Source of the DNA: Escherichia phage T7
Sequence record: PV223882
Reading direction: 5' to 3' (one strand)
DNA: 38,432 nt
How positions within the stretch are numbered: position 1 is the stretch's first letter; every line of letters begins with the position of its first letter. The notes under the pieces are model-generated. The model ran no database searches. It saw only the letters and a program-made list of their open reading frames with translations, and had not been told where the DNA came from. This document shows, piece by piece, positions 10,870-25,721 of this stretch. Made by a program: the position numbers and the translations under genes.

Positions 10870-12984
10870 ATGATCGTTTCTGACATCGAAGCTAACGCCC
10901 TCTTAGAGAGCGTCACTAAGTTCCACTGCGGGGTTATCTACGACTACTCCACCGCTGAGTACGTAAGCTACCGTCCGAGTGACTTCGGTGCGTATCTGGA
11001 TGCGCTGGAAGCCGAGGTTGCACGAGGCGGTCTTATTGTGTTCCACAACGGTCACAAGTATGACGTTCCTGCATTGACCAAACTGGCAAAGTTGCAATTG
11101 AACCGAGAGTTCCACCTTCCTCGTGAGAACTGTATTGACACCCTTGTGTTGTCACGTTTGATTCATTCCAACCTCAAGGACACCGATATGGGTCTTCTGC
11201 GTTCCGGCAAGTTGCCCGGAAAACGCTTTGGGTCTCACGCTTTGGAGGCGTGGGGTTATCGCTTAGGCGAGATGAAGGGTGAATACAAAGACGACTTTAA
11301 GCGTATGCTTGAAGAGCAGGGTGAAGAATACGTTGACGGAATGGAGTGGTGGAACTTCAACGAAGAGATGATGGACTATAACGTTCAGGACGTTGTGGTA
11401 ACTAAAGCTCTCCTTGAGAAGCTACTCTCTGACAAACATTACTTCCCTCCTGAGATTAACTTTACGGACGTAGGATACACTACGTTCTGGTCAGAATCCC
11501 TTGAGGCCGTTGACATTGAACATCGTGCTGCATGGCTGCTCGCTAAACAAGAGCGCAACGGGTTCCCGTTTGACACAAAAGCAATCGAAGAGTTGTACGT
11601 AGAGTTAGCTGCTCGCCGCTCTGAGTTGCTCCGTAAATTGACCGAAACGTTCGGCTCGTGGTATCAGCCTAAAGGTGGCACTGAGATGTTCTGCCATCCG
11701 CGAACAGGTAAGCCACTACCTAAATACCCTCGCATTAAGACACCTAAAGTTGGTGGTATCTTTAAGAAGCCTAAGAACAAGGCACAGCGAGAAGGCCGTG
11801 AGCCTTGCGAACTTGATACCCGCGAGTACGTTGCTGGTGCTCCTTACACCCCAGTTGAACATGTTGTGTTTAACCCTTCGTCTCGTGACCACATTCAGAA
11901 GAAACTCCAAGAGGCTGGGTGGGTCCCGACCAAGTACACCGATAAGGGTGCTCCTGTGGTGGACGATGAGGTACTCGAAGGAGTACGTGTAGATGACCCT
12001 GAGAAGCAAGCCGCTATCGACCTCATTAAAGAGTACTTGATGATTCAGAAGCGAATCGGACAGTCTGCTGAGGGAGACAAAGCATGGCTTCGTTATGTTG
12101 CTGAGGATGGTAAGATTCATGGTTCTGTTAACCCTAATGGAGCAGTTACGGGTCGTGCGACCCATGCGTTCCCAAACCTTGCGCAAATTCCGGGTGTACG
12201 TTCTCCTTATGGAGAGCAGTGTCGCGCTGCTTTTGGCGCTGAGCACCATTTGGATGGGATAACTGGTAAGCCTTGGGTTCAGGCTGGCATCGACGCATCC
12301 GGTCTTGAGCTACGCTGCTTGGCTCACTTCATGGCTCGCTTTGATAACGGCGAGTACGCTCACGAGATTCTTAACGGCGACATCCACACTAAGAACCAGA
12401 TAGCTGCTGAACTACCTACCCGAGATAACGCTAAGACGTTCATCTATGGGTTCCTCTATGGTGCTGGTGATGAGAAGATTGGACAGATTGTTGGTGCTGG
12501 TAAAGAGCGCGGTAAGGAACTCAAGAAGAAATTCCTTGAGAACACCCCCGCGATTGCAGCACTCCGCGAGTCTATCCAACAGACACTTGTCGAGTCCTCT
12601 CAATGGGTAGCTGGTGAGCAACAAGTCAAGTGGAAACGCCGCTGGATTAAAGGTCTGGATGGTCGTAAGGTACACGTTCGTAGTCCTCACGCTGCCTTGA
12701 ATACCCTACTGCAATCTGCTGGTGCTCTCATCTGCAAACTGTGGATTATCAAGACCGAAGAGATGCTCGTAGAGAAAGGCTTGAAGCATGGCTGGGATGG
12801 GGACTTTGCGTACATGGCATGGGTACATGATGAAATCCAAGTAGGCTGCCGTACCGAAGAGATTGCTCAGGTGGTCATTGAGACCGCACAAGAAGCGATG
12901 CGCTGGGTTGGAGACCACTGGAACTTCCGGTGTCTTCTGGATACCGAAGGTAAGATGGGTCCTAATTGGGCGATTTGCCACTGA
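10870..12984 (+). CDS. 5: DNA polymerase gp5
   Basis: 704-aa [29 protein letters not shown]... with family A polymerase motifs. Confidence 0.97.
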
Positions 12985-13029
12985 TACAGGAGGCTACTCA
13001 AAAGGCATAAAACTATAGGAGAAATTATT

Positions 13030-13329
13030 ATGGCTATGACAAAGAAATTTAAAGTGTCCTTCGACGTTACCGCAAAGATGTCGTCTGACGTTCAGGCAAT
13101 CTTAGAGAAAGATATGCTGCATCTATGTAAGCAGGTCGGCTCAGGTGCGATTGTCCCCAATGGTAAACAGAAGGAAATGATTGTCCAGTTCCTGACACAC
13201 GGTATGGAAGGATTGATGACATTCGTAGTACGTACATCATTTCGTGAGGCCATTAAGGACATGCACGAAGAGTATGCAGATAAGGACTCTTTCAAACAAT
13301 CTCCTGCAACAGTACGGGAGGTGTTCTGA
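13030..13329 (+). CDS. 5.5: Gp5.5 (H-NS binding protein)
   Basis: 99-aa ORF MAMTKKFKVSFDVTAKMSSDVQAILEKDMLHLCKQV... Confidence 0.9.
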   Translation: MAMTKKFKVSFDVTAKMSSDVQAILEKDMLHLCKQVGSGAIVPNGKQKEMIVQFLTHGMEGLMTFVVRTSFREAIKDMHEEYADKDSFKQSPATVREVF

Positions 13330-13538
13330 TGTCTGACTACCTGAAAGTGCTGCAAGCAATCAAAAGTTGCCCTAAGACTTTCCAGTCCAACTATGTACGG
13401 AACAATGCGAGCCTCGTAGCGGAGGCCGCTTCCCGTGGTCACATCTCGTGCCTGACTACTAGTGGACGTAACGGTGGCGCTTGGGAAATCACTGCTTCCG
13501 GTACTCGCTTTCTGAAACGAATGGGAGGATGTGTCTAA
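13329..13538 (+). CDS. 5.7: Gp5.7
   Basis: 69-aa ORF overlapping 5.5 stop (TGATG). Confidence 0.88.
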   Translation: MSDYLKVLQAIKSCPKTFQSNYVRNNASLVAEAASRGHISCLTTSGRNGGAWEITASGTRFLKRMGGCV

Positions 13539-13696
13539 TGTCTCGTGACCTTGTGACTATTCCACGCGATGTGTGGAACGATATACAGGGCTACATCGAC
13601 TCTCTGGAACGTGAGAACGATAGCCTTAAGAATCAACTAATGGAAGCTGACGAATACGTAGCGGAACTAGAGGAGAAACTTAATGGCACTTCTTGA
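13538..13696 (+). CDS. 5.9: Gp5.9 RecBCD inhibitor
   Basis: 52-aa ORF MSRDLVTIPRDVWNDIQGYIDSLERENDSLKNQLMEADEYVAELEEKLNGTS. Confidence 0.85.
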   Translation: MSRDLVTIPRDVWNDIQGYIDSLERENDSLKNQLMEADEYVAELEEKLNGTS

Positions 13697-14585
13697 CCTT
13701 AAACAATTCTATGAGTTACGTGAAGGCTGCGACGACAAGGGTATCCTTGTGATGGACGGCGACTGGCTGGTCTTCCAAGCTATGAGTGCTGCTGAGTTTG
13801 ATGCCTCTTGGGAGGAAGAGATTTGGCACCGATGCTGTGACCACGCTAAGGCCCGTCAGATTCTTGAGGATTCCATTAAGTCCTACGAGACCCGTAAGAA
13901 GGCTTGGGCAGGTGCTCCAATTGTCCTTGCGTTCACCGATAGTGTTAACTGGCGTAAAGAACTGGTTGACCCGAACTATAAGGCTAACCGTAAGGCCGTG
14001 AAGAAACCTGTAGGGTACTTTGAGTTCCTTGATGCTCTCTTTGAGCGCGAAGAGTTCTATTGCATCCGTGAGCCTATGCTTGAGGGTGATGACGTTATGG
14101 GAGTTATTGCTTCCAATCCGTCTGCCTTCGGTGCTCGTAAGGCTGTAATCATCTCTTGCGATAAGGACTTTAAGACCATCCCTAACTGTGACTTCCTGTG
14201 GTGTACCACTGGTAACATCCTGACTCAGACCGAAGAGTCCGCTGACTGGTGGCACCTCTTCCAGACCATCAAGGGTGACATCACTGATGGTTACTCAGGG
14301 ATTGCTGGATGGGGTGATACCGCCGAGGACTTCTTGAATAACCCGTTCATAACCGAGCCTAAAACGTCTGTGCTTAAGTCCGGTAAGAACAAAGGCCAAG
14401 AGGTTACTAAATGGGTTAAACGCGACCCTGAGCCTCATGAGACGCTTTGGGACTGCATTAAGTCCATTGGCGCGAAGGCTGGTATGACCGAAGAGGATAT
14501 TATCAAGCAGGGCCAAATGGCTCGAATCCTACGGTTCAACGAGTACAACTTTATTGACAAGGAGATTTACCTGTGGAGACCGTAG
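13683..14585 (+). CDS. 6: 5'-3' exonuclease gp6
   Basis: 300-aa ORF MALLDLKQFYELREGCDDKGILVMDGDWLVFQAMSA... Confidence 0.96.
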   Translation: MALLDLKQFYELREGCDDKGILVMDGDWLVFQAMSAAEFDASWEEEIWHRCCDHAKARQILEDSIKSYETRKKAWAGAPIVLAFTDSVNWRKELVDPNYKANRKAVKKPVGYFEFLDALFEREEFYCIREPMLEGDDVMGVIASNPSAFGARKAVIISCDKDFKTIPNCDFLWCTTGNILTQTEESADWWHLFQTIKGDITDGYSGIAGWGDTAEDFLNNPFITEPKTSVLKSGKNKGQEVTKWVKRDPEPHETLWDCIKSIGAKAGMTEEDIIKQGQMARILRFNEYNFIDKEIYLWRP

Positions 14586-14686
14586 CGTATATTGGTCTGG
14601 GTCTTTGTGTTCTCGGAGTGTGCCTCATTTCGTGGGGCCTTTGGGACTTAGCCAGAATAATCAAGTCGTTACACGACACTAAGTGA
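14573..14686 (+). CDS. 6.3: Gp6.3 small membrane-like protein (GTG start)
   Basis: 37-codon ORF overlapping the gene 6 end; hydrophobic AYIGLGLCVLGVCLISWGLW. Confidence 0.7.
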   Translation: METVAYIGLGLCVLGVCLISWGLWDLARIIKSLHDTK

Positions 14687-14706
14687 TAAACTCAAGGTCC
14701 CTAAAT

Positions 14707-14729
14707 TAATACGACTCACTATAGGGAGA
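14707..14729 (+). promoter_or_regulatory. T7 class III promoter phi6.5
   Basis: taatacgactcactatagggaga exact consensus. Confidence 0.9.
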
Positions 14730-14783
14730 TAGGGGCCTTTACGATTATTACTTTAAGATTTAACTCTAAGAGGAATCTTTATT

Positions 14784-15038
14784 ATGTTAACACCTATTAA
14801 CCAATTACTTAAGAACCCTAACGATATTCCAGATGTACCTCGTGCAACCGCTGAGTATCTACAGGTTCGATTCAACTATGCGTACCTCGAAGCGTCTGGT
14901 CATATAGGACTTATGCGTGCTAATGGTTGTAGTGAGGCCCACATCTTGGGTTTCATTCAGGGCCTACAGTATGCCTCTAACGTCATTGACGAGATTGAGT
15001 TACGCAAGGAACAACTAAGAGATGATGGGGAGGATTGA
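14784..15038 (+). CDS. 6.5: Gp6.5
   Basis: 84-aa [30 protein letters not shown]... Confidence 0.9.
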
Positions 15039-15042
15039 CACT

Positions 15043-15309
15043 ATGTGTTTCTCACCGAAAATTAAAACTCCGAAGATGGATACCAATCAGATTCGAGCCG
15101 TTGAGCCAGCGCCTCTGACCCAAGAAGTGTCAAGCGTGGAGTTCGGTGGGTCTTCTGATGAGACGGATACCGAGGGCACCGAAGTGTCTGGACGCAAAGG
15201 CCTCAAGGTCGAACGTGATGATTCCGTAGCGAAGTCTAAAGCCAGCGGCAATGGCTCCGCTCGTATGAAATCTTCCATCCGTAAGTCCGCATTTGGAGGT
15301 AAGAAGTGA
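15043..15309 (+). CDS. 6.7: Gp6.7 virion protein
   Basis: 88-aa ORF MCFSPKIKTPKMDTNQIRAV... Confidence 0.88.
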   Translation: MCFSPKIKTPKMDTNQIRAVEPAPLTQEVSSVEFGGSSDETDTEGTEVSGRKGLKVERDDSVAKSKASGNGSARMKSSIRKSAFGGKK

Positions 15310-15710
15310 TGTCTGAGTTCACATGTGTGGAGGCTAAGAGTCGCTTCCGTGCAATCCGGTGGACTGTGGAACACCTTGGGTTGCCTAAAGGATTCGAAGG
15401 ACACTTTGTGGGCTACAGCCTCTACGTAGACGAAGTGATGGACATGTCTGGTTGCCGTGAAGAGTACATTCTGGACTCTACCGGAAAACATGTAGCGTAC
15501 TTCGCGTGGTGCGTAAGCTGTGACATTCACCACAAAGGAGACATTCTGGATGTAACGTCCGTTGTCATTAATCCTGAGGCAGACTCTAAGGGCTTACAGC
15601 GATTCCTAGCGAAACGCTTTAAGTACCTTGCGGAACTCCACGATTGCGATTGGGTGTCTCGTTGTAAGCATGAAGGCGAGACAATGCGTGTATACTTTAA
15701 GGAGGTATAA
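15309..15710 (+). CDS. 7: Gp7 (host-range / virion assembly)
   Basis: 133-aa ORF MSEFTCVEAKSRFRAIRWTVEHLG... Confidence 0.9.
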   Translation: MSEFTCVEAKSRFRAIRWTVEHLGLPKGFEGHFVGYSLYVDEVMDMSGCREEYILDSTGKHVAYFAWCVSCDIHHKGDILDVTSVVINPEADSKGLQRFLAKRFKYLAELHDCDWVSRCKHEGETMRVYFKEV

Positions 15711-15713
15711 GTT

Positions 15714-16013
15714 ATGGGTAAGAAAGTTAAGAAGGCCGTGAAGAAAGTCACCAAGTCCGTTAAGAAAGTCGTTAAGGAAGGGGCTCGTCCGGTTAAACAG
15801 GTTGCTGGCGGTCTAGCTGGTCTGGCTGGTGGTACTGGTGAAGCACAGATGGTGGAAGCACCACAAGCTGCCGCACAGATTGTTGACGTACCTGAGAAAG
15901 AGGTTTCCACTGAGGACGAAGCACAGACAGAAAGCGGACGCAAGAAAGCTCGTGCTGGCGGTAAGAAATCCTTGAGTGTAGCCCGTAGCTCCGGTGGCGG
16001 TATCAACATTTAA
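15714..16013 (+). CDS. 7.3: Gp7.3 tail-associated protein
   Basis: 99-aa lysine-rich ORF MGKKVKKAVKKVTKSVKKVVKEGARP... Confidence 0.92.
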   Translation: MGKKVKKAVKKVTKSVKKVVKEGARPVKQVAGGLAGLAGGTGEAQMVEAPQAAAQIVDVPEKEVSTEDEAQTESGRKKARAGGKKSLSVARSSGGGINI

Positions 16014-16026
16014 TCAGGAGGTTATC

Positions 16027-16290
16027 GTGGAAGACTGCATTGAATGGACCGGAGGTGTCAACTCTAAGGGTTATGGTCGTAAGTGGGTTAATGGTAAACT
16101 TGTGACTCCACATAGGCACATCTATGAGGAGACATATGGTCCAGTTCCAACAGGAATTGTGGTGATGCATATCTGCGATAACCCTAGGTGCTATAACATA
16201 AAGCACCTTACGCTTGGAACTCCAAAGGATAATTCCGAGGACATGGTTACCAAAGGTAGACAGGCTAAAGGAGAGGAACTAAGCAAGTAA
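16027..16290 (+). pseudogene. 7.7: Gene 7.7 (HNH endonuclease-like), truncated by the LysK cassette insertion
   Basis: GTG-start ORF with HNH motif HICDNPRCYNIKHL ends at ...GEELSK; the stop codon is supplied by the first TAA of the inserted promoter. Confidence 0.8.
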
Positions 16291-16310
16291 TACGACTCAC
16301 TATAGGCCTC
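16288..16310 (+). promoter_or_regulatory. Inserted T7 promoter (pET-style, lac operator absent) driving the LysK cassette
   Basis: taatacgactcactatagg followed by cctctagaaataattttgtttaactttaagaaggagatatacatATG; leader and RBS identical to the native gene 10 leader. Confidence 0.9.
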
Positions 16311-16350
16311 TAGAAATAATTTTGTTTAACTTTAAGAAGGAGATATACAT

Positions 16351-17874
16351 ATGGGCAGCAGCCATCATCATCATCATCACAGCAGCGGCGCTAAGACTCA
16401 AGCAGAAATAAATAAACGTTTAGACGCTTATGCAAAAGGTACAGTAGACAGTCCTTATAGAATTAAAAAAGCTACAAGCTATGACCCATCGTTTGGTGTA
16501 ATGGAAGCAGGAGCAATTGACGCAGATGGTTACTATCATGCACAGTGCCAAGACTTAATTACTGATTATGTATTATGGTTAACAGATAATAAAGTTAGAA
16601 CTTGGGGTAATGCTAAAGACCAAATCAAACAAAGTTATGGTACTGGATTTAAAATACATGAAAATAAACCTTCTACAGTACCTAAAAAAGGATGGATTGC
16701 TGTATTTACATCCGGTAGTTATCAGCAATGGGGTCACATAGGTATTGTATATGATGGAGGTAATACTTCTACATTTACTATTTTAGAGCAAAACTGGAAC
16801 GGTTACGCTAATAAAAAACCTACAAAACGTGTAGATAATTATTACGGATTAACTCATTTTATTGAGATACCTGTAAAAGCAGGAACTACTGTTAAAAAAG
16901 AAACAGCTAAGAAAAGTGCAAGTAAAACACCTGCACCTAAAAAGAAAGCAACACTAAAAGTTTCTAAGAACCATATTAACTATACAATGGATAAACGTGG
17001 TAAGAAACCTGAAGGAATGGTAATACACAACGATGCAGGTCGTTCTTCAGGGCAACAATACGAGAATTCATTAGCTAACGCAGGTTATGCTAGATATGCT
17101 AATGGTATTGCTCATTACTATGGCTCTGAAGGTTATGTATGGGAAGCAATAGATGCTAAGAATCAAATTGCTTGGCACACAGGAGATGGAACAGGAGCAA
17201 ACTCAGGTAACTTTAGATTTGCAGGTATTGAAGTCTGTCAATCAATGAGTGCTAGTGATGCTCAATTCCTTAAAAACGAACAAGCAGTATTCCAATTTAC
17301 TGCAGAGAAATTTAAAGAATGGGGTCTTACTCCTAATCGTAAAACTGTAAGATTGCATATGGAATTTGTTCCAACAGCTTGTCCTCATCGTTCTATGGTT
17401 CTTCATACAGGATTTAATCCAGTAACACAAGGAAGACCATCTCAAGCAATAATGAATAAACTAAAAGATTATTTCATTAAACAAATTAAAAACTACATGG
17501 ATAAAGGAACTTCAAGTTCTACAGTAGTTAAAGACGGTAAAACAAGTAGCGCAAGTACACCGGCAACTAGACCAGTAACAGGCTCTTGGAAAAAGAACCA
17601 GTACGGAACTTGGTACAAACCGGAAAATGCAACATTTGTTAATGGTAACCAACCTATAGTAACTAGAATAGGTTCTCCATTCTTAAATGCTCCAGTAGGA
17701 GGTAACTTACCGGCAGGAGCTACAATTGTATATGACGAAGTTTGTATCCAAGCAGGTCACATTTGGATAGGTTACAATGCTTACAATGGTGACAGAGTAT
17801 ATTGCCCTGTTAGAACTTGTCAAGGAGTTCCACCTAATCATATACCTGGGGTTGCCTGGGGAGTATTCAAATAG
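16351..17874 (+). CDS. lysK: Heterologous N-terminally His6-tagged staphylococcal phage endolysin (LysK of phage K; CHAP, amidase_2 and SH3b domains)
   Basis: [13 protein letters not shown] tag then [33 protein letters not shown]... recognised as LysK; CHAP Cys in ...YHAQCQDL; AT-rich native codons. Confidence 0.88.
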
Positions 17875-17905
17875 TACTACAGCGTAAGACATGGAGACAC
17901 ATTTA

Positions 17906-19516
17906 ATGGCTGAGAAACGAACAGGACTTGCGGAGGATGGCGCAAAGTCTGTCTATGAGCGTTTAAAGAACGACCGTGCTCCCTATGAGACACGCGCTCA
18001 GAATTGCGCTCAATATACCATCCCATCATTGTTCCCTAAGGACTCCGATAACGCCTCTACAGATTATCAAACTCCGTGGCAAGCCGTGGGCGCTCGTGGT
18101 CTGAACAATCTAGCCTCTAAGCTCATGCTGGCTCTATTCCCTATGCAGACTTGGATGCGACTTACTATATCTGAATATGAAGCAAAGCAGTTACTGAGCG
18201 ACCCCGATGGACTCGCTAAGGTCGATGAGGGCCTCTCGATGGTAGAGCGTATCATCATGAACTACATTGAGTCTAACAGTTACCGCGTGACTCTCTTTGA
18301 GGCTCTCAAACAGTTAGTCGTAGCTGGTAACGTCCTGCTGTACCTACCGGAACCGGAAGGGTCAAACTATAATCCCATGAAGCTGTACCGATTGTCTTCT
18401 TATGTGGTCCAACGAGACGCATTCGGCAACGTTCTGCAAATGGTGACTCGTGACCAGATAGCTTTTGGTGCTCTCCCTGAGGACATCCGTAAGGCTGTAG
18501 AAGGTCAAGGTGGTGAGAAGAAAGCTGATGAGACAATCGACGTGTACACTCACATCTATCTGGATGAGGACTCAGGTGAATACCTCCGATACGAAGAGGT
18601 CGAGGGTATGGAAGTCCAAGGCTCCGATGGGACTTATCCTAAAGAGGCTTGCCCATACATCCCGATTCGGATGGTCAGACTAGATGGTGAATCCTACGGT
18701 CGTTCGTACATTGAGGAATACTTAGGTGACTTACGGTCCCTTGAAAATCTCCAAGAGGCTATCGTCAAGATGTCCATGATTAGCTCTAAGGTTATCGGCT
18801 TAGTGAATCCTGCTGGTATCACCCAGCCACGCCGACTGACCAAAGCTCAGACTGGTGACTTCGTTACTGGTCGTCCAGAAGACATCTCGTTCCTCCAACT
18901 GGAGAAGCAAGCAGACTTTACTGTAGCTAAAGCCGTAAGTGACGCTATCGAGGCTCGCCTTTCGTTTGCCTTTATGTTGAACTCTGCGGTTCAGCGTACA
19001 GGTGAACGTGTGACCGCCGAAGAGATTCGGTATGTAGCTTCTGAACTTGAAGATACTTTAGGTGGTGTCTACTCTATCCTTTCTCAAGAATTACAATTGC
19101 CTCTGGTACGAGTGCTCTTGAAGCAACTACAAGCCACGCAACAGATTCCTGAGTTACCTAAGGAAGCCGTAGAGCCAACCATTAGTACAGGTCTGGAAGC
19201 AATTGGTCGAGGACAAGACCTTGATAAGCTGGAGCGGTGTGTCACTGCGTGGGCTGCACTGGCACCTATGCGGGACGACCCTGATATTAACCTTGCGATG
19301 ATTAAGTTACGTATTGCCAACGCTATCGGTATTGACACTTCTGGTATTCTACTCACCGAAGAACAGAAGCAACAGAAGATGGCCCAACAGTCTATGCAAA
19401 TGGGTATGGATAATGGTGCTGCTGCGCTGGCTCAAGGTATGGCTGCACAAGCTACAGCTTCACCTGAGGCTATGGCTGCTGCCGCTGATTCCGTAGGTTT
19501 ACAGCCGGGAATTTAA
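17906..19516 (+). CDS. 8: Head-tail connector (portal) protein gp8
   Basis: 536-aa ORF MAEKRTGLAEDGAKSVYERL...; native upstream sequence retained. Confidence 0.97.
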   Translation: MAEKRTGLAEDGAKSVYERLKNDRAPYETRAQNCAQYTIPSLFPKDSDNASTDYQTPWQAVGARGLNNLASKLMLALFPMQTWMRLTISEYEAKQLLSDPDGLAKVDEGLSMVERIIMNYIESNSYRVTLFEALKQLVVAGNVLLYLPEPEGSNYNPMKLYRLSSYVVQRDAFGNVLQMVTRDQIAFGALPEDIRKAVEGQGGEKKADETIDVYTHIYLDEDSGEYLRYEEVEGMEVQGSDGTYPKEACPYIPIRMVRLDGESYGRSYIEEYLGDLRSLENLQEAIVKMSMISSKVIGLVNPAGITQPRRLTKAQTGDFVTGRPEDISFLQLEKQADFTVAKAVSDAIEARLSFAFMLNSAVQRTGERVTAEEIRYVASELEDTLGGVYSILSQELQLPLVRVLLKQLQATQQIPELPKEAVEPTISTGLEAIGRGQDLDKLERCVTAWAALAPMRDDPDINLAMIKLRIANAIGIDTSGILLTEEQKQQKMAQQSMQMGMDNGAAALAQGMAAQATASPEAMAAAADSVGLQPGI

Positions 19517-19536
19517 TACGACTCACTATAGGGAGA
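19514..19536 (+). promoter_or_regulatory. T7 class III promoter phi9
   Basis: taatacgactcactatagggaga. Confidence 0.9.
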
Positions 19537-19615
19537 CCTCATCTTTGAAATGAGCGATGACAAGAGGTTGGAGTCCTCGGTCTTCCTGTAGTTCAACTTT
19601 AAGGAGACAATAATA

Positions 19616-20539
19616 ATGGCTGAATCTAATGCAGACGTATATGCATCTTTTGGCGTGAACTCCGCTGTGATGTCTGGTGGTTCCGTTGAGGAACATGAGC
19701 AGAACATGCTGGCTCTTGATGTTGCTGCCCGTGATGGCGATGATGCAATCGAGTTAGCGTCAGACGAAGTGGAAACAGAACGTGACCTGTATGACAACTC
19801 TGACCCGTTCGGTCAAGAGGATGACGAAGGCCGCATTCAGGTTCGTATCGGTGATGGCTCTGAGCCGACCGATGTGGACACTGGAGAAGAAGGCGTTGAG
19901 GGCACCGAAGGTTCCGAAGAGTTTACCCCACTGGGCGAGACTCCAGAAGAACTGGTAGCTGCCTCTGAGCAACTTGGTGAGCACGAAGAGGGCTTCCAAG
20001 AGATGATTAACATTGCTGCTGAGCGTGGCATGAGTGTCGAGACCATTGAGGCTATCCAGCGTGAGTACGAGGAGAACGAAGAGTTGTCCGCCGAGTCCTA
20101 CGCTAAGCTGGCTGAAATTGGCTACACGAAGGCTTTCATTGACTCGTATATCCGTGGTCAAGAAGCTCTGGTGGAGCAGTACGTAAACAGTGTCATTGAG
20201 TACGCTGGTGGTCGTGAACGTTTTGATGCACTGTATAACCACCTTGAGACGCACAACCCTGAGGCTGCACAGTCGCTGGATAATGCGTTGACCAATCGTG
20301 ACTTAGCGACCGTTAAGGCTATCATCAACTTGGCTGGTGAGTCTCGCGCTAAGGCGTTCGGTCGTAAGCCAACTCGTAGTGTGACTAATCGTGCTATTCC
20401 GGCTAAACCTCAGGCTACCAAGCGTGAAGGCTTTGCGGACAGTAGCGAGATGATTAAAGCTATGAGTGACCCTCGGTATCGCACAGATGCCAACTATCGT
20501 CGTCAAGTCGAACAGAAAGTAATCGATTCGAACTTCTGA
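19616..20539 (+). CDS. 9: Capsid assembly (scaffolding) protein gp9
   Basis: 307-aa acidic ORF MAESNADVYASFGVNSAVMSGG... Confidence 0.96.
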   Translation: MAESNADVYASFGVNSAVMSGGSVEEHEQNMLALDVAARDGDDAIELASDEVETERDLYDNSDPFGQEDDEGRIQVRIGDGSEPTDVDTGEEGVEGTEGSEEFTPLGETPEELVAASEQLGEHEEGFQEMINIAAERGMSVETIEAIQREYEENEELSAESYAKLAEIGYTKAFIDSYIRGQEALVEQYVNSVIEYAGGRERFDALYNHLETHNPEAAQSLDNALTNRDLATVKAIINLAGESRAKAFGRKPTRSVTNRAIPAKPQATKREGFADSSEMIKAMSDPRYRTDANYRRQVEQKVIDSNF

Positions 20540-20552
20540 TAGACTTCGAAAT

Positions 20553-20575
20553 TAATACGACTCACTATAGGGAGA
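20553..20575 (+). promoter_or_regulatory. T7 class III promoter phi10 with native gene 10 leader
   Basis: taatacgactcactatagggagaccacaacggtttccctctagaaataattttgtttaactttaagaaggagatatacatATG. Confidence 0.95.
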
Positions 20576-20632
20576 CCACAACGGTTTCCCTCTAGAAATA
20601 ATTTTGTTTAACTTTAAGAAGGAGATATACAT

Positions 20633-21670
20633 ATGGCTAGCATGACTGGTGGACAGCAAATGGGTACTAACCAAGGTAAAGGTGTAGTTGCTGCTGGAGA
20701 TAAACTGGCGTTGTTCTTGAAGGTATTTGGCGGTGAAGTCCTGACTGCGTTCGCTCGTACCTCCGTGACCACTTCTCGCCACATGGTACGTTCCATCTCC
20801 AGCGGTAAATCCGCTCAGTTCCCTGTTCTGGGTCGCACTCAGGCAGCGTATCTGGCTCCGGGCGAGAACCTCGACGATAAACGTAAGGACATCAAACACA
20901 CCGAGAAGGTAATCACCATTGACGGTCTCCTGACGGCTGACGTTCTGATTTATGATATTGAGGACGCGATGAACCACTACGACGTTCGCTCTGAGTATAC
21001 CTCTCAGTTGGGTGAATCTCTGGCGATGGCTGCGGATGGTGCGGTTCTGGCTGAGATTGCCGGTCTGTGTAACGTGGAAAGCAAATATAATGAGAACATC
21101 GAGGGCTTAGGTACTGCTACCGTAATTGAGACCACTCAGAACAAGGCCGCACTTACCGACCAAGTTGCGCTGGGTAAGGAGATTATTGCGGCTCTGACTA
21201 AGGCTCGTGCGGCTCTGACCAAGAACTATGTTCCGGCTGCTGACCGTGTGTTCTACTGTGACCCAGATAGCTACTCTGCGATTCTGGCAGCACTGATGCC
21301 GAACGCAGCAAACTACGCTGCTCTGATTGACCCTGAGAAGGGTTCTATCCGCAACGTTATGGGCTTTGAGGTTGTAGAAGTTCCGCACCTCACCGCTGGT
21401 GGTGCTGGTACCGCTCGTGAGGGCACTACTGGTCAGAAGCACGTCTTCCCTGCCAATAAAGGTGAGGGTAATGTCAAGGTTGCTAAGGACAACGTTATCG
21501 GCCTGTTCATGCACCGCTCTGCGGTAGGTACTGTTAAGCTGCGTGACTTGGCTCTGGAGCGCGCTCGCCGTGCTAACTTCCAAGCGGACCAGATTATCGC
21601 TAAGTACGCAATGGGCCACGGTGGTCTTCGCCCAGAAGCTGCTGGTGCAGTGGTTTTCAAAGTGGAGTAA
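20633..21670 (+). CDS. 10A: Major capsid protein gp10A
   Basis: 345-aa ORF MASMTGGQQMG... (T7-tag N-terminus) ending ...AVVFKVE*. Confidence 0.98.
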   Translation: MASMTGGQQMGTNQGKGVVAAGDKLALFLKVFGGEVLTAFARTSVTTSRHMVRSISSGKSAQFPVLGRTQAAYLAPGENLDDKRKDIKHTEKVITIDGLLTADVLIYDIEDAMNHYDVRSEYTSQLGESLAMAADGAVLAEIAGLCNVESKYNENIEGLGTATVIETTQNKAALTDQVALGKEIIAALTKARAALTKNYVPAADRVFYCDPDSYSAILAALMPNAANYAALIDPEKGSIRNVMGFEVVEVPHLTAGGAGTAREGTTGQKHVFPANKGEGNVKVAKDNVIGLFMHRSAVGTVKLRDLALERARRANFQADQIIAKYAMGHGGLRPEAAGAVVFKVE

Positions 21671-21693
21671 TAATACGACTCACTATAGGCCTC
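21671..21693 (+). promoter_or_regulatory. Inserted T7 promoter (pET-style, no lac operator) driving the second lysin cassette
   Basis: Identical to the 16288 element: taatacgactcactataggcctctagaaataattttgtttaactttaagaaggagatatacat. Confidence 0.9.
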
Positions 21694-21733
21694 TAGAAAT
21701 AATTTTGTTTAACTTTAAGAAGGAGATATACAT

Positions 21734-22498
21734 ATGACAACAGTAAATGAAGCATTAAATAATGTAAGAGCTCAGGTTGGGTCCGGTGTGTCTGTTGGCA
21801 ACGGCGAATGCTACGCTTTGGCTAGTTGGTACGAGCGCATGATTAGTCCGGATGCAACTGTCGGACTTGGCGCTGGTGTGGGCTGGGTCAGCGGTGCAAT
21901 CGGCGATACAATCTCTGCCAAAAACATCGGCTCATCATACAACTGGCAAGCTAACGGCTGGACAGTTTCCACATCTGGTCCATTTAAAGCAGGTCAGATT
22001 GTGACGCTTGGGGCAACACCAGGAAACCCTTACGGACATGTGGTAATCGTCGAAGCAGTGGACGGCGATAGATTGACTATTTTGGAGCAAAACTACGGCG
22101 GGAAACGTTATCCCGTCCGTAATTATTACAGCGCTGCAAGCTATCGTCAACAGGTCGTGCATTACATCACACCGCCTGGCACGGTCGCACAGTCAGCACC
22201 CAACCTTGCAGGCTCTCGTTCCTATCGCGAGACGGGCACTATGACTGTCACGGTCGATGCTCTCAATGTTCGCAGGGCGCCAAATACTTCAGGCGAGATT
22301 GTAGCAGTATACAAGCGTGGTGAATCATTTGACTATGATACTGTCATCATCGATGTCAATGGCTATGTCTGGGTGTCTTACATAGGCGGCAGCGGCAAAC
22401 GTAACTACGTTGCGACGGGCGCTACCAAAGACGGTAAGCGTTTCGGCAATGCTTGGGGTACATTTAAAGGCAGCAGCCATCATCATCATCATCACTAG
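21734..22498 (+). CDS. plySs2: Heterologous C-terminally His6-tagged CHAP-SH3b streptococcal lysin (PlySs2-like)
   Basis: MTTVNEALNNVRAQVGSGVSVGNGECYALASWYERMISPD... recognised as PlySs2 from S. suis; ends ...[13 protein letters not shown]. Confidence 0.8.
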   Translation: MTTVNEALNNVRAQVGSGVSVGNGECYALASWYERMISPDATVGLGAGVGWVSGAIGDTISAKNIGSSYNWQANGWTVSTSGPFKAGQIVTLGATPGNPYGHVVIVEAVDGDRLTILEQNYGGKRYPVRNYYSAASYRQQVVHYITPPGTVAQSAPNLAGSRSYRETGTMTVTVDALNVRRAPNTSGEIVAVYKRGESFDYDTVIIDVNGYVWVSYIGGSGKRNYVATGATKDGKRFGNAWGTFKGSSHHHHHH

Positions 22499-22656
22499 CT
22501 GCTGGGGGTGGCCTCAACGGTCGCTGCTAGTCCCGAAGAGGCGAGTGTTACTTCAACAGAAGAAACCTTAACGCCAGCACAGAAGGCCGCACGCACCCGC
22601 GCTGCTAACAAAGCCCGAAAGGAAGCTGAGTTGACTGCTGCCACCGCTGAGCAATA
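22499..22656 (+). other. Untranslated remnant of the gene 10B C-terminal extension region
   Basis: Sequence that in wild-type T7 encodes the frameshift-dependent 10B tail now lies downstream of the cassette stop. Confidence 0.75.
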
Positions 22657-22704
22657 ACTAGCATAACCCCTTGGGGCCTCTAAACGGGTCTTGAGGGGTT
22701 TTTT
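22657..22704 (+). terminator. T7 RNAP terminator Tphi
   Basis: ctagcataaccccttggggcctctaaacgggtcttgaggggttttttg. Confidence 0.95.
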
Positions 22705-22722
22705 GCTGAAAGGAGGAACTAT

Positions 22723-23313
22723 ATGCGCTCATGCGATATGAACGTTGAGACTGCCGCTGAGTTATCAGCTGTGAACGACATTCTGGCGTCTATCGGTGAA
22801 CCTCCGGTATCAACGCTGGAAGGTGACGCTAACGCAGATGTAGCGAACGCTCGGCGTATTCTCAACAAGATTAACCGACAGATTCAATCTCGTGGATGGA
22901 CGTTCAACATTGAGGAAGGCATAACGCTACTACCTGATGTTTACTCCAACCTGATTGTATACAGTGACGACTATTTATCCCTAATGTCTACTTCCGGTCA
23001 ATCCATCTACGTTAACCGAGGTGGCTATGTGTATGACCGAACGAGTCAATCAGACCGCTTTGACTCTGGTATTACTGTGAACATTATTCGTCTCCGCGAC
23101 TACGATGAGATGCCTGAGTGCTTCCGTTACTGGATTGTCACCAAGGCTTCCCGTCAGTTCAACAACCGATTCTTTGGGGCACCGGAAGTAGAGGGTGTAC
23201 TCCAAGAAGAGGAAGATGAGGCTAGACGTCTCTGCATGGAGTATGAGATGGACTACGGTGGGTACAATATGCTGGATGGAGATGCGTTCACTTCTGGTCT
23301 ACTGACTCGCTAA
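22723..23313 (+). CDS. 11: Tail tubular protein A gp11
   Basis: 196-aa ORF in T7 order after Tphi. Confidence 0.95.
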
Positions 23314-23336
23314 CATTAATAAATAAGGAGGCTCTA

Positions 23337-25721
23337 ATGGCACTCATTAGCCAATCAATCAAGAACTTGAAGGGTGGTATCAGCCAACAGCCTGACATCC
23401 TTCGTTATCCAGACCAAGGGTCACGCCAAGTTAACGGTTGGTCTTCGGAGACCGAGGGCCTCCAAAAGCGTCCACCTCTTGTTTTCTTAAATACACTTGG
23501 AGACAACGGTGCGTTAGGTCAAGCTCCGTACATCCACCTGATTAACCGAGATGAGCACGAACAGTATTACGCTGTGTTCACTGGTAGCGGAATCCGAGTG
23601 TTCGACCTTTCTGGTAACGAGAAGCAAGTTAGGTATCCTAACGGTTCCAACTACATCAAGACCGCTAATCCACGTAACGACCTGCGAATGGTTACTGTAG
23701 CAGACTATACGTTCATCGTTAACCGTAACGTTGTTGCACAGAAGAACACAAAGTCTGTCAACTTACCGAATTACAACCCTAATCAAGACGGATTGATTAA
23801 CGTTCGTGGTGGTCAGTATGGTAGGGAACTAATTGTACACATTAACGGTAAAGACGTTGCGAAGTATAAGATACCAGATGGTAGTCAACCTGAACACGTA
23901 AACAATACGGATGCCCAATGGTTAGCTGAAGAGTTAGCCAAGCAGATGCGCACTAACTTGTCTGATTGGACTGTAAATGTAGGGCAAGGGTTCATCCATG
24001 TGACCGCACCTAGTGGTCAACAGATTGACTCCTTCACGACTAAAGATGGCTACGCAGACCAGTTGATTAACCCTGTGACCCACTACGCTCAGTCGTTCTC
24101 TAAGCTGCCACCTAATGCTCCTAACGGCTACATGGTGAAAATCGTAGGGGACGCCTCTAAGTCTGCCGACCAGTATTACGTTCGGTATGACGCTGAGCGG
24201 AAAGTTTGGACTGAGACTTTAGGTTGGAACACTGAGGACCAAGTTCTATGGGAAACCATGCCACACGCTCTTGTGCGAGCCGCTGACGGTAATTTCGACT
24301 TCAAGTGGCTTGAGTGGTCTCCTAAGTCTTGTGGTGACGTTGACACCAACCCTTGGCCTTCTTTTGTTGGTTCAAGTATTAACGATGTGTTCTTCTTCCG
24401 TAACCGCTTAGGATTCCTTAGTGGGGAGAACATCATATTGAGTCGTACAGCCAAATACTTCAACTTCTACCCTGCGTCCATTGCGAACCTTAGTGATGAC
24501 GACCCTATAGACGTAGCTGTGAGTACCAACCGAATAGCAATCCTTAAGTACGCCGTTCCGTTCTCAGAAGAGTTACTCATCTGGTCCGATGAAGCACAAT
24601 TCGTCCTGACTGCCTCGGGTACTCTCACATCTAAGTCGGTTGAGTTGAACCTAACGACCCAGTTTGACGTACAGGACCGAGCGAGACCTTTTGGGATTGG
24701 GCGTAATGTCTACTTTGCTAGTCCGAGGTCCAGCTTCACGTCCATCCACAGGTACTACGCTGTGCAGGATGTCAGTTCCGTTAAGAATGCTGAGGACATT
24801 ACATCACACGTTCCTAACTACATCCCTAATGGTGTGTTCAGTATTTGCGGAAGTGGTACGGAAAACTTCTGTTCGGTACTATCTCACGGGGACCCTAGTA
24901 AAATCTTCATGTACAAATTCCTGTACCTGAACGAAGAGTTAAGGCAACAGTCGTGGTCTCATTGGGACTTTGGGGAAAACGTACAGGTTCTAGCTTGTCA
25001 GAGTATCAGCTCAGATATGTATGTGATTCTTCGCAATGAGTTCAATACGTTCCTAGCTAGAATCTCTTTCACTAAGAACGCCATTGACTTACAGGGAGAA
25101 CCCTATCGTGCCTTTATGGACATGAAGATTCGATACACGATTCCTAGTGGAACATACAACGATGACACATTCACTACCTCTATTCATATTCCAACAATTT
25201 ATGGTGCAAACTTCGGGAGGGGCAAAATCACTGTATTGGAGCCTGATGGTAAGATAACCGTGTTTGAGCAACCTACGGCTGGGTGGAATAGCGACCCTTG
25301 GCTGAGACTCAGCGGTAACTTGGAGGGACGCATGGTGTACATTGGGTTCAACATTAACTTCGTATATGAGTTCTCTAAGTTCCTCATCAAGCAGACTGCC
25401 GACGACGGGTCTACCTCCACGGAAGACATTGGGCGCTTACAGTTACGCCGAGCGTGGGTTAACTACGAGAACTCTGGTACGTTTGACATTTATGTTGAGA
25501 ACCAATCGTCTAACTGGAAGTACACAATGACTGGTGCCCGATTAGGCTCTAACACTCTGAGGGCTGGGAGACTGAACTTAGGGACCGGACAATATCGATT
25601 CCCTGTGGTTGGTAACGCCAAGTTCAACACTGTATACATCTTGTCAGATGAGACTACCCCTCTGAACATCATTGGGTGTGGCTGGGAAGGTAACTACTTA
25701 CGGAGAAGTTCCGGTATTTAA
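23337..25721 (+). CDS. 12: Tail tubular protein B gp12
   Basis: 794-aa ORF MALISQSIKNLKGGISQQPDILRYPDQG... Confidence 0.96.
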   Translation: MALISQSIKNLKGGISQQPDILRYPDQGSRQVNGWSSETEGLQKRPPLVFLNTLGDNGALGQAPYIHLINRDEHEQYYAVFTGSGIRVFDLSGNEKQVRYPNGSNYIKTANPRNDLRMVTVADYTFIVNRNVVAQKNTKSVNLPNYNPNQDGLINVRGGQYGRELIVHINGKDVAKYKIPDGSQPEHVNNTDAQWLAEELAKQMRTNLSDWTVNVGQGFIHVTAPSGQQIDSFTTKDGYADQLINPVTHYAQSFSKLPPNAPNGYMVKIVGDASKSADQYYVRYDAERKVWTETLGWNTEDQVLWETMPHALVRAADGNFDFKWLEWSPKSCGDVDTNPWPSFVGSSINDVFFFRNRLGFLSGENIILSRTAKYFNFYPASIANLSDDDPIDVAVSTNRIAILKYAVPFSEELLIWSDEAQFVLTASGTLTSKSVELNLTTQFDVQDRARPFGIGRNVYFASPRSSFTSIHRYYAVQDVSSVKNAEDITSHVPNYIPNGVFSICGSGTENFCSVLSHGDPSKIFMYKFLYLNEELRQQSWSHWDFGENVQVLACQSISSDMYVILRNEFNTFLARISFTKNAIDLQGEPYRAFMDMKIRYTIPSGTYNDDTFTTSIHIPTIYGANFGRGKITVLEPDGKITVFEQPTAGWNSDPWLRLSGNLEGRMVYIGFNINFVYEFSKFLIKQTADDGSTSTEDIGRLQLRRAWVNYENSGTFDIYVENQSSNWKYTMTGARLGSNTLRAGRLNLGTGQYRFPVVGNAKFNTVYILSDETTPLNIIGCGWEGNYLRRSSGI

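Follow-up and report, generated by a model that had tools for sequence, protein, structure and literature searches.

A lysin cassette behind gene 10A of an engineered T7 phage abolishes native capsid protein 10B and leaves a short predicted frameshift tail

Introduction

A known counterpart of the locus examined here is gene 10 of wild-type bacteriophage T7, where some ribosomes change frame near the end of the gene for the major capsid protein, 10A, and produce the longer protein 10B. The site at which this takes place is the heptamer G_GUU_UUC (PMC5009743, PMC1635266), classified in a 2016 review on recoding as a G_GU variant of the X_XXY_YYZ motif (PMC5009743). According to the same review, gene 10 frameshifting involves a CCCC that belongs to the terminator and lies over 200 nt 3' of the site, a long-range effect which the review terms unexplained. 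A case in which foreign DNA follows the site is provided by p10-EYFP, a helper plasmid in which shifting occurred at less than 1%, compared to the approximately 10% of wild-type 10B, with the shifted product still being taken into infectious particles (Slootweg et al., NAR 2006; PMC1635266). Concerning the requirement for 10B, a genome-wide T7 knockout study showed that loss of g10B spares viability if g10A is present, with fitness scores in agreement (PMC11482910).

Gene 10 has also served as an insertion locus for payloads. In a study on SMART genome engineering (mBio 2025; PMC12153263), a T7 chassis with a reduced genome, T7-B, was provided with PT7-lysGH15 at the gp7.7 locus and with a 0.8-kb PT7-lyJDSS3 insert at the "gp10 locus", and T7-B-GJ is the phage that carries both. 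Insertions at the gp10 locus gave viable phages, a phage with a 3-kb insert was similar to the chassis in infection efficiency, and T7-B-J and T7-B-GJ were stable through 10 transfers. The SDS-PAGE analyses in that study concern His-purified lysins only. The word "frameshift" does not occur in its text, and neither the paper nor the GenBank records mention a loss of 10B or an artificial tail. Here we describe the gene 10 locus in a stretch of DNA of 38,432 nt, which as a whole is referred to as the window. Our analysis followed up a reading of the letters alone (the sequence-only reading), which had proposed that an insertion behind 10A abolishes 10B or replaces its extension with an artificial tail.

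Results

Identity of the window and its parent construct

Judged by two related GenBank records taken together with the published description, the whole window is the synthetic phage T7-B-GJ (PMC12153263). The region from 1 to 20000 was 100% identical to the record of T7-B-G (PV223881.1, 37,603 bp), with the coordinates of 10A agreeing in both, and the junction behind 10A together with the inserted cassette was 100% identical over 2301 bases to the record of the recombinant T7-B-J (PV223883.1). The length of T7-B-G plus that of the cassette (37,603 and 829) gives 38,432, the length of the window. The window thus corresponds, in coordinates and in length, to T7-B-G plus the lyJDSS3 cassette, and at the gene 10 locus it does not differ from the design of T7-B-J and T7-B-GJ. 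Both features that define the payload design of T7-B-GJ are present, the lysin cassette at the gp10 locus and a His6-lysGH15 cassette at the gp7.7 locus. The latter, a second engineered cassette at 16288..17874, consists of a consensus T7 promoter (16288..16306) and an open reading frame for a His6-tagged LysGH15, an anti-staphylococcal lysin of 507 aa (16351..17874), in agreement with the published PT7-lysGH15 insert at gp7.7 (PMC12153263).

The window was also compared with the wild-type T7 genome (V01146). Positions 20500..21670 matched V01146 22834..24004 with zero mismatches, and positions 22500..23100 differed from V01146 24005..24605 by four substitutions. Two are found in the remnant of the 10B tail, at 22583 (G>A, Glu>Lys) and 22634 (G>A, Ala>Thr), and two in gene 11, at 22733 (A>G, Tyr4>Cys) and 22841 (C>T). 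As all four are common to the T7-B-G and T7-B-J records, they point to the parental T7 lineage of the laboratory and are not specific to the construct.

Concerning the annotation of the locus, a gp10.0 ending at 23,989 would presumably fit the end of the first part of the 10B join in the GenBank reference. This is the end point listed in the supplementary gene table of the original study, where gp10.0 spans 22,967-23,989 (PMC12153263). In PV223881.1 and PV223883.1, the CDS of the 345-aa 10A carries the note "gp10B", and no 10B CDS is annotated over the locus, even in T7-B-G with its intact 10B frame.

Organization of the gene 10 locus

The genetic elements of the locus, all of which lie on the + strand, begin with the native phi10 promoter, the full s10 leader and the ribosome-binding site at 20553..20632, a region identical to V01146. 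The promoter (TAATACGACTCACTATAGGGAGA) is an exact match to the consensus at 20553..20571 and corresponds to the phi10 annotated in V01146. Gene 10A follows at 20633..21670, with a TAA stop codon at 21668..21670, and encodes the major capsid protein of 345 aa (Pfam Gp10A-like, E = 6.5e-115); it has no mismatches to V01146 22967..24004. The -1 shift heptamer (GGTTTTC, G_GUU_UUC) was found intact at 21652..21658, as judged by position and phase, with its initial G in the third position of the codon before Val341 (GTT, 21653..21655), which is followed by Phe342 (TTC, 21656..21658). The 13 bases 3' of the heptamer (AAAGTGGAGTAAT, 21659..21671) are also the same as in wild type. When the frame of 10A was scanned for other perfect X_XXY_YYZ heptamers, none was found, and a scan of 10A for the canonical +1 motif gave none either.

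Gapped alignment to V01146 and T7-B-G placed an 829-bp PT7-lyJDSS3-His6 cassette at 21671..22499, between wild-type T7 positions 24004 and 24005. As the sequence-only reading had stated, the cassette begins directly after the 10A stop codon, at the first base after the TAA. This point is 12 bases past the end of G_GUU_UUC and inside the 10B-specific reading frame. The left homology arm of the primers listed in the supplement of PMC12153263 ends in GTGGTTTTCAAAGTGGAGTA (...GTGGAGTA), which is the junction observed in the window. The junction is a designed one, for which chance is not at issue, and it matches PV223883.1 at 100% over the 2301 bases compared.

The control region of the cassette (21671..21733) was delineated by direct repeats and a promoter match. 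It comprises a truncated T7 promoter of which the 19-nt core is present (21671..21689), and a copy of the s10 leader with ribosome-binding site (21690..21733) which does not contain 17 nt of the native leader, GAGACCACAACGGTTTC. Because these 17 nt are missing, the cassette transcript would begin with GGCCUC, not GGGAGA, and would not have the native 5' leader segment. The lysin gene, lyJDSS3-His6 (21734..22498, TAG stop codon), encodes 254 aa ending in HHHHHH, with CHAP (2.3e-11) and SH3_5 (5e-8) domains in Pfam, and the corresponding gene in PV223883.1 is annotated as endolysin LyJDSS3. Gene 10A is flanked by direct repeats at 20553..20635 and 21671..21736, one of 19 nt (promoter core, spacing 1118) and one of 47 nt (leader, ribosome-binding site and ATG, spacing 1101). 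If these repeats recombined, 10A would be lost, so that such events should be selected against. Inside the lysin gene, at 22097..22117, a hairpin weakly resembling a terminator (GGCGGGAAACGTTATCCCGTC, with few T residues in the tail behind it) is most likely a chance match to the consensus.

Product predicted for the -1 frame

The sequence-only reading had set beforehand that its proposal depended on a shift site upstream of 21670, and the heptamer at 21652..21658 does lie upstream of that position. We then followed the -1 frame out of the heptamer. It runs past the 10A stop codon and through the inserted promoter, and closes at a TAG (21694..21696) that falls within an XbaI site in the leader copy. 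The tail that can be encoded, at 21658..21696, has the codons CAA AGT GGA GTA ATA ATA CGA CTC ACT ATA GGC CTC TAG and reads …VVF-QSGVIIRLTIGL-stop, or GFQSGVIIRLTIGL-stop when read more widely. Of the 12 residues that follow Phe342, the first four (QSGV) are those of native 10B, and the remaining eight (IIRLTIGL) are new, their codons being formed by the region of the 10A stop codon, by the promoter core of the cassette and by the start of its leader copy.

The shift was simulated on both the window and the wild-type locus by translating in the zero frame up to Phe342 and then stepping back by one base. For wild type, the simulation gave a 10B of 398 aa ending in …AAATAEQ. The annotation of 10B, a join of two pieces spanning 22967..24162, implies the same length, and this agreement supports the shift model. 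It also bears out, together with the V01146 annotation, the starting point of the sequence-only reading, that ribosomes of wild-type T7 infections slip by -1 close to the 10A terminus and so produce a 10B with 53 additional residues (398 vs 345 aa). 10A has a computed mass of 36,545 Da, and wild-type 10B one of 41,830 Da. In the window, the simulated -1 product was 354 aa and 37,440 Da (37.4 kDa), ending in FQSGVIIRLTIGL, and is thus only 9 aa and about 0.9 kDa larger than 10A. The C-terminal peptides predicted for this product are …AAGAVVFQSGVIIR and LTIGL, and the corresponding tail peptide of wild-type 10B is …AAGAVVFQSGVMLGVASTVAAS….

Expected frequency of the shift

How often the 354-aa product would be made is likely to depend on the sequences 3' of the heptamer, and here the window departs from wild type at two scales. 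In wild type, the end of the heptamer is separated from the first CCCC of the terminator T-phi by about 180 nt, and in the window by about 1,009 nt, the cassette having widened the gap between site and stimulator by about 830 nt. T-phi itself is intact, with its CCCC (stem-loop at 22665..22700, terminator scan). On the local scale, the heptamer and the next 60 nt (67 nt in total) gave folding energies of -20.2 kcal/mol in wild type and -7.5 kcal/mol in the window, values that are minimum-free-energy predictions and do not amount to demonstration of a stimulator. In wild type a GC-rich hairpin is predicted directly 3' of the site, and its place in the window is taken by the AU-rich promoter and leader. 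As both 3' contexts are lost, the local GC-rich hairpin and the proximity of T-phi, we infer a lower shift rate. The -1 product is probably made far less often than the approximately 10% of wild type, and probably accounts for about 1% of gp10 or less, which would correspond to a few copies or fewer per capsid of 415 subunits.

We considered the possibility that shifting stays close to the wild-type level of about 10%, in which case QSGVIIRLTIGL would be present on some 40 of the 415 subunits of a capsid. The heptamer and the 13 bases that follow are unchanged and T-phi is on the same transcript, where it could retain some effect; the long-range effect, being unexplained (PMC5009743), may also tolerate distance. 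On the other hand, the increase in stimulator distance and the loss of the local hairpin speak against an unchanged rate, as does the precedent in which some 0.7 kb of foreign sequence lay behind the site and the 10A stop codon and shifting was below 1% (PMC1635266). We therefore regard a near-wild-type rate as unlikely. If it were true, it would mean that a terminator-borne stimulator of gene 10 frameshifting works over about 1 kb. We are a little more sceptical still of the composite proposal that the site continues to shift appreciably, that T7-B-GJ virions display the hydrophobic QSGVIIRLTIGL on a noticeable fraction of the capsid, and that a trace of a -2 product is conceivable. The sequence-only reading had expected capsids to contain a minor species with a new tail, which is probably overstated, with T-phi about 830 nt farther away and a precedent below 1%.

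Fate of the native 10B tail and other reading frames

The native 10B-specific tail (…LGVASTVAAS…AEQ, stop) was found at 22500..22657, where it aligns to V01146 24005..24162 with 2 substitutions. It has been moved about 0.83 kb downstream and is out of reach from 10A. The sequence-only reading was correct in describing this tail as no longer translated from 10A, and its position for the tail, 22499..22656, was one base off. Gene 11 begins farther downstream, at 22723. A separate start of translation for the orphaned tail, at a GTG at 22508, was considered as a candidate and rejected, as no plausible ribosome-binding site is present at a workable spacing.

The orphaned tail shares its frame with the lysin gene and lies behind the lysin TAG, with only this single stop codon in between (…HHHHHH, stop, LLGVASTVAAS…AEQ). 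Read-through of the TAG would therefore attach the 10B tail to the C terminus of the lysin, in a predicted product of 307 aa and about 32.5 kDa, and in an amber-suppressor host this lysin-10B-tail fusion would be formed. We consider its formation in the described setting highly improbable. BL21(DE3) is a non-suppressor strain, so that read-through should be negligible, and the product would in any case be a lysin fusion rather than a capsid protein; the simplest account of the shared frame is chance, given an insert length of 3n+1. BL21(DE3) is the host named in PMC12153263 and in related GenBank records.

The sequence-only reading had taken the tail of the -1 product from an open reading frame at 21543..21737, and this part of it did not hold. 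The frame is real, does terminate in the peptide given by that reading and overlaps the end of 10A, but the notion that a -1-shifted ribosome reads it and yields a 10B-like protein with that tail is the least probable of those considered, and can hardly be correct: it is a mechanical reading frame in +1 (21543-20633 = 910 = 3n+1) and the documented T7 event is -1, the -1 simulation reproduces the annotated length of 10B, a -2 shift would place UGG in the P site with no re-pairing by tRNA-Val, 10A offers neither of the alternative motifs scanned for, and all that can be proposed on paper is a slip of tRNA-Phe by two bases along the U-run, from UUC to UUU (21654..21656), to give a product of 368 aa. 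The 26-residue tail was consequently rejected as a -1 product, since it needs a -2/+1 shift without P-site re-pairing support; the tail in the -1 frame is the 12-residue one. The -2 re-pairing of tRNA-Phe is the only route to the tail of this reading frame, with products of 368 aa in the window and 356 aa in wild type. We found no evidence for a -2 event at G_GUU_UUC in E. coli. G_GUU_UUC closely resembles G_GUU_UUU, the -2/-1 frameshift site of arteriviruses.

Discussion

The results are best explained, and we hold this with high confidence, by regarding the artificial tail and the loss of 10B as a by-product of deliberate engineering, the slipped product being a probably rare protein of 354 aa for which no phenotype is expected. 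As the sequence shows, PT7-lyJDSS3-His6 was recombined in directly behind the 10A stop codon, and gene 10 mRNAs starting from phi10 and upstream promoters keep the shift site and extend through the cassette. A ribosome slipping by -1 at Val341-Phe342 would read QSGV and then IIRLTIGL, and would terminate at the TAG at 21694..21696. The outcome is a 354-aa variant of 10A, and the full-length 10B of 398 aa can no longer be made. A phenotype is not expected, since T7 can do without 10B and its capsid accepts additions to the C-termini of 10A/10B. The dispensability of 10B, which the sequence-only reading had also stated, is in accordance with the knockout study (PMC11482910).

Native 10B is abolished in the window, and this is a real but ordinary side effect of engineering, in a phage that has already been published. 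Its biological weight is small, taking into account that 10B is dispensable and that the variant is a short C-terminal one that is probably rare. For those who use such phages for therapy-oriented work, for display or for virion proteomics, it is relevant that 10B is lost and a capsid tail gained unintentionally whenever a payload is placed at the gp10 locus. Users of the chassis may expect the predicted peptide …AAGAVVFQSGVIIR/LTIGL. The construct also represents an unplanned natural test of the reach of the T-phi stimulator, at about 1 kb.

Among known systems, wild-type T7 (V01146 22967..24162) has an identical 10A, the same G_GUU_UUC and the same first four shifted codons (QSGV), and T-phi is on the mRNA in both. 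In wild type the -1 frame stays open for 56 codons after Phe342, so that 10B is 10A with 53 additional residues, whereas in the window it closes after 12, giving 354 instead of 398 aa, and the 829-bp insert has pushed both the 10B tail and T-phi downstream. Of the features that define 10A/10B recoding in T7, the window retains the heptamer, does not have the open 10B frame, and has T-phi at about 1,009 nt instead of about 200 nt from the site. The p10-EYFP construct (PMC1635266) resembles the window in having the same 10A end, GGTTTTCAAAGTGGAGTAA, with foreign DNA directly after it, and thus tested the site in isolation by experiment. There, the foreign open reading frame was purposely placed in the -1 frame as a fusion, while the -1 frame of the window is accidental and closed after 12 codons; p10-EYFP was, in addition, expressed from a plasmid and not during infection, unlike the phage. 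In T7Select (Novagen), as in the window, altered C-termini of 10A/10B are present, and these and altered 10A:10B ratios are tolerated by capsids. The T7Select design removes the frameshift and fixes 10B in frame, truncated at residue 348. The window differs in keeping the site intact, and in that its tail is unplanned. Altered C-termini of gene 10 are thus long established in T7 display, with p10-EYFP and T7Select as examples.
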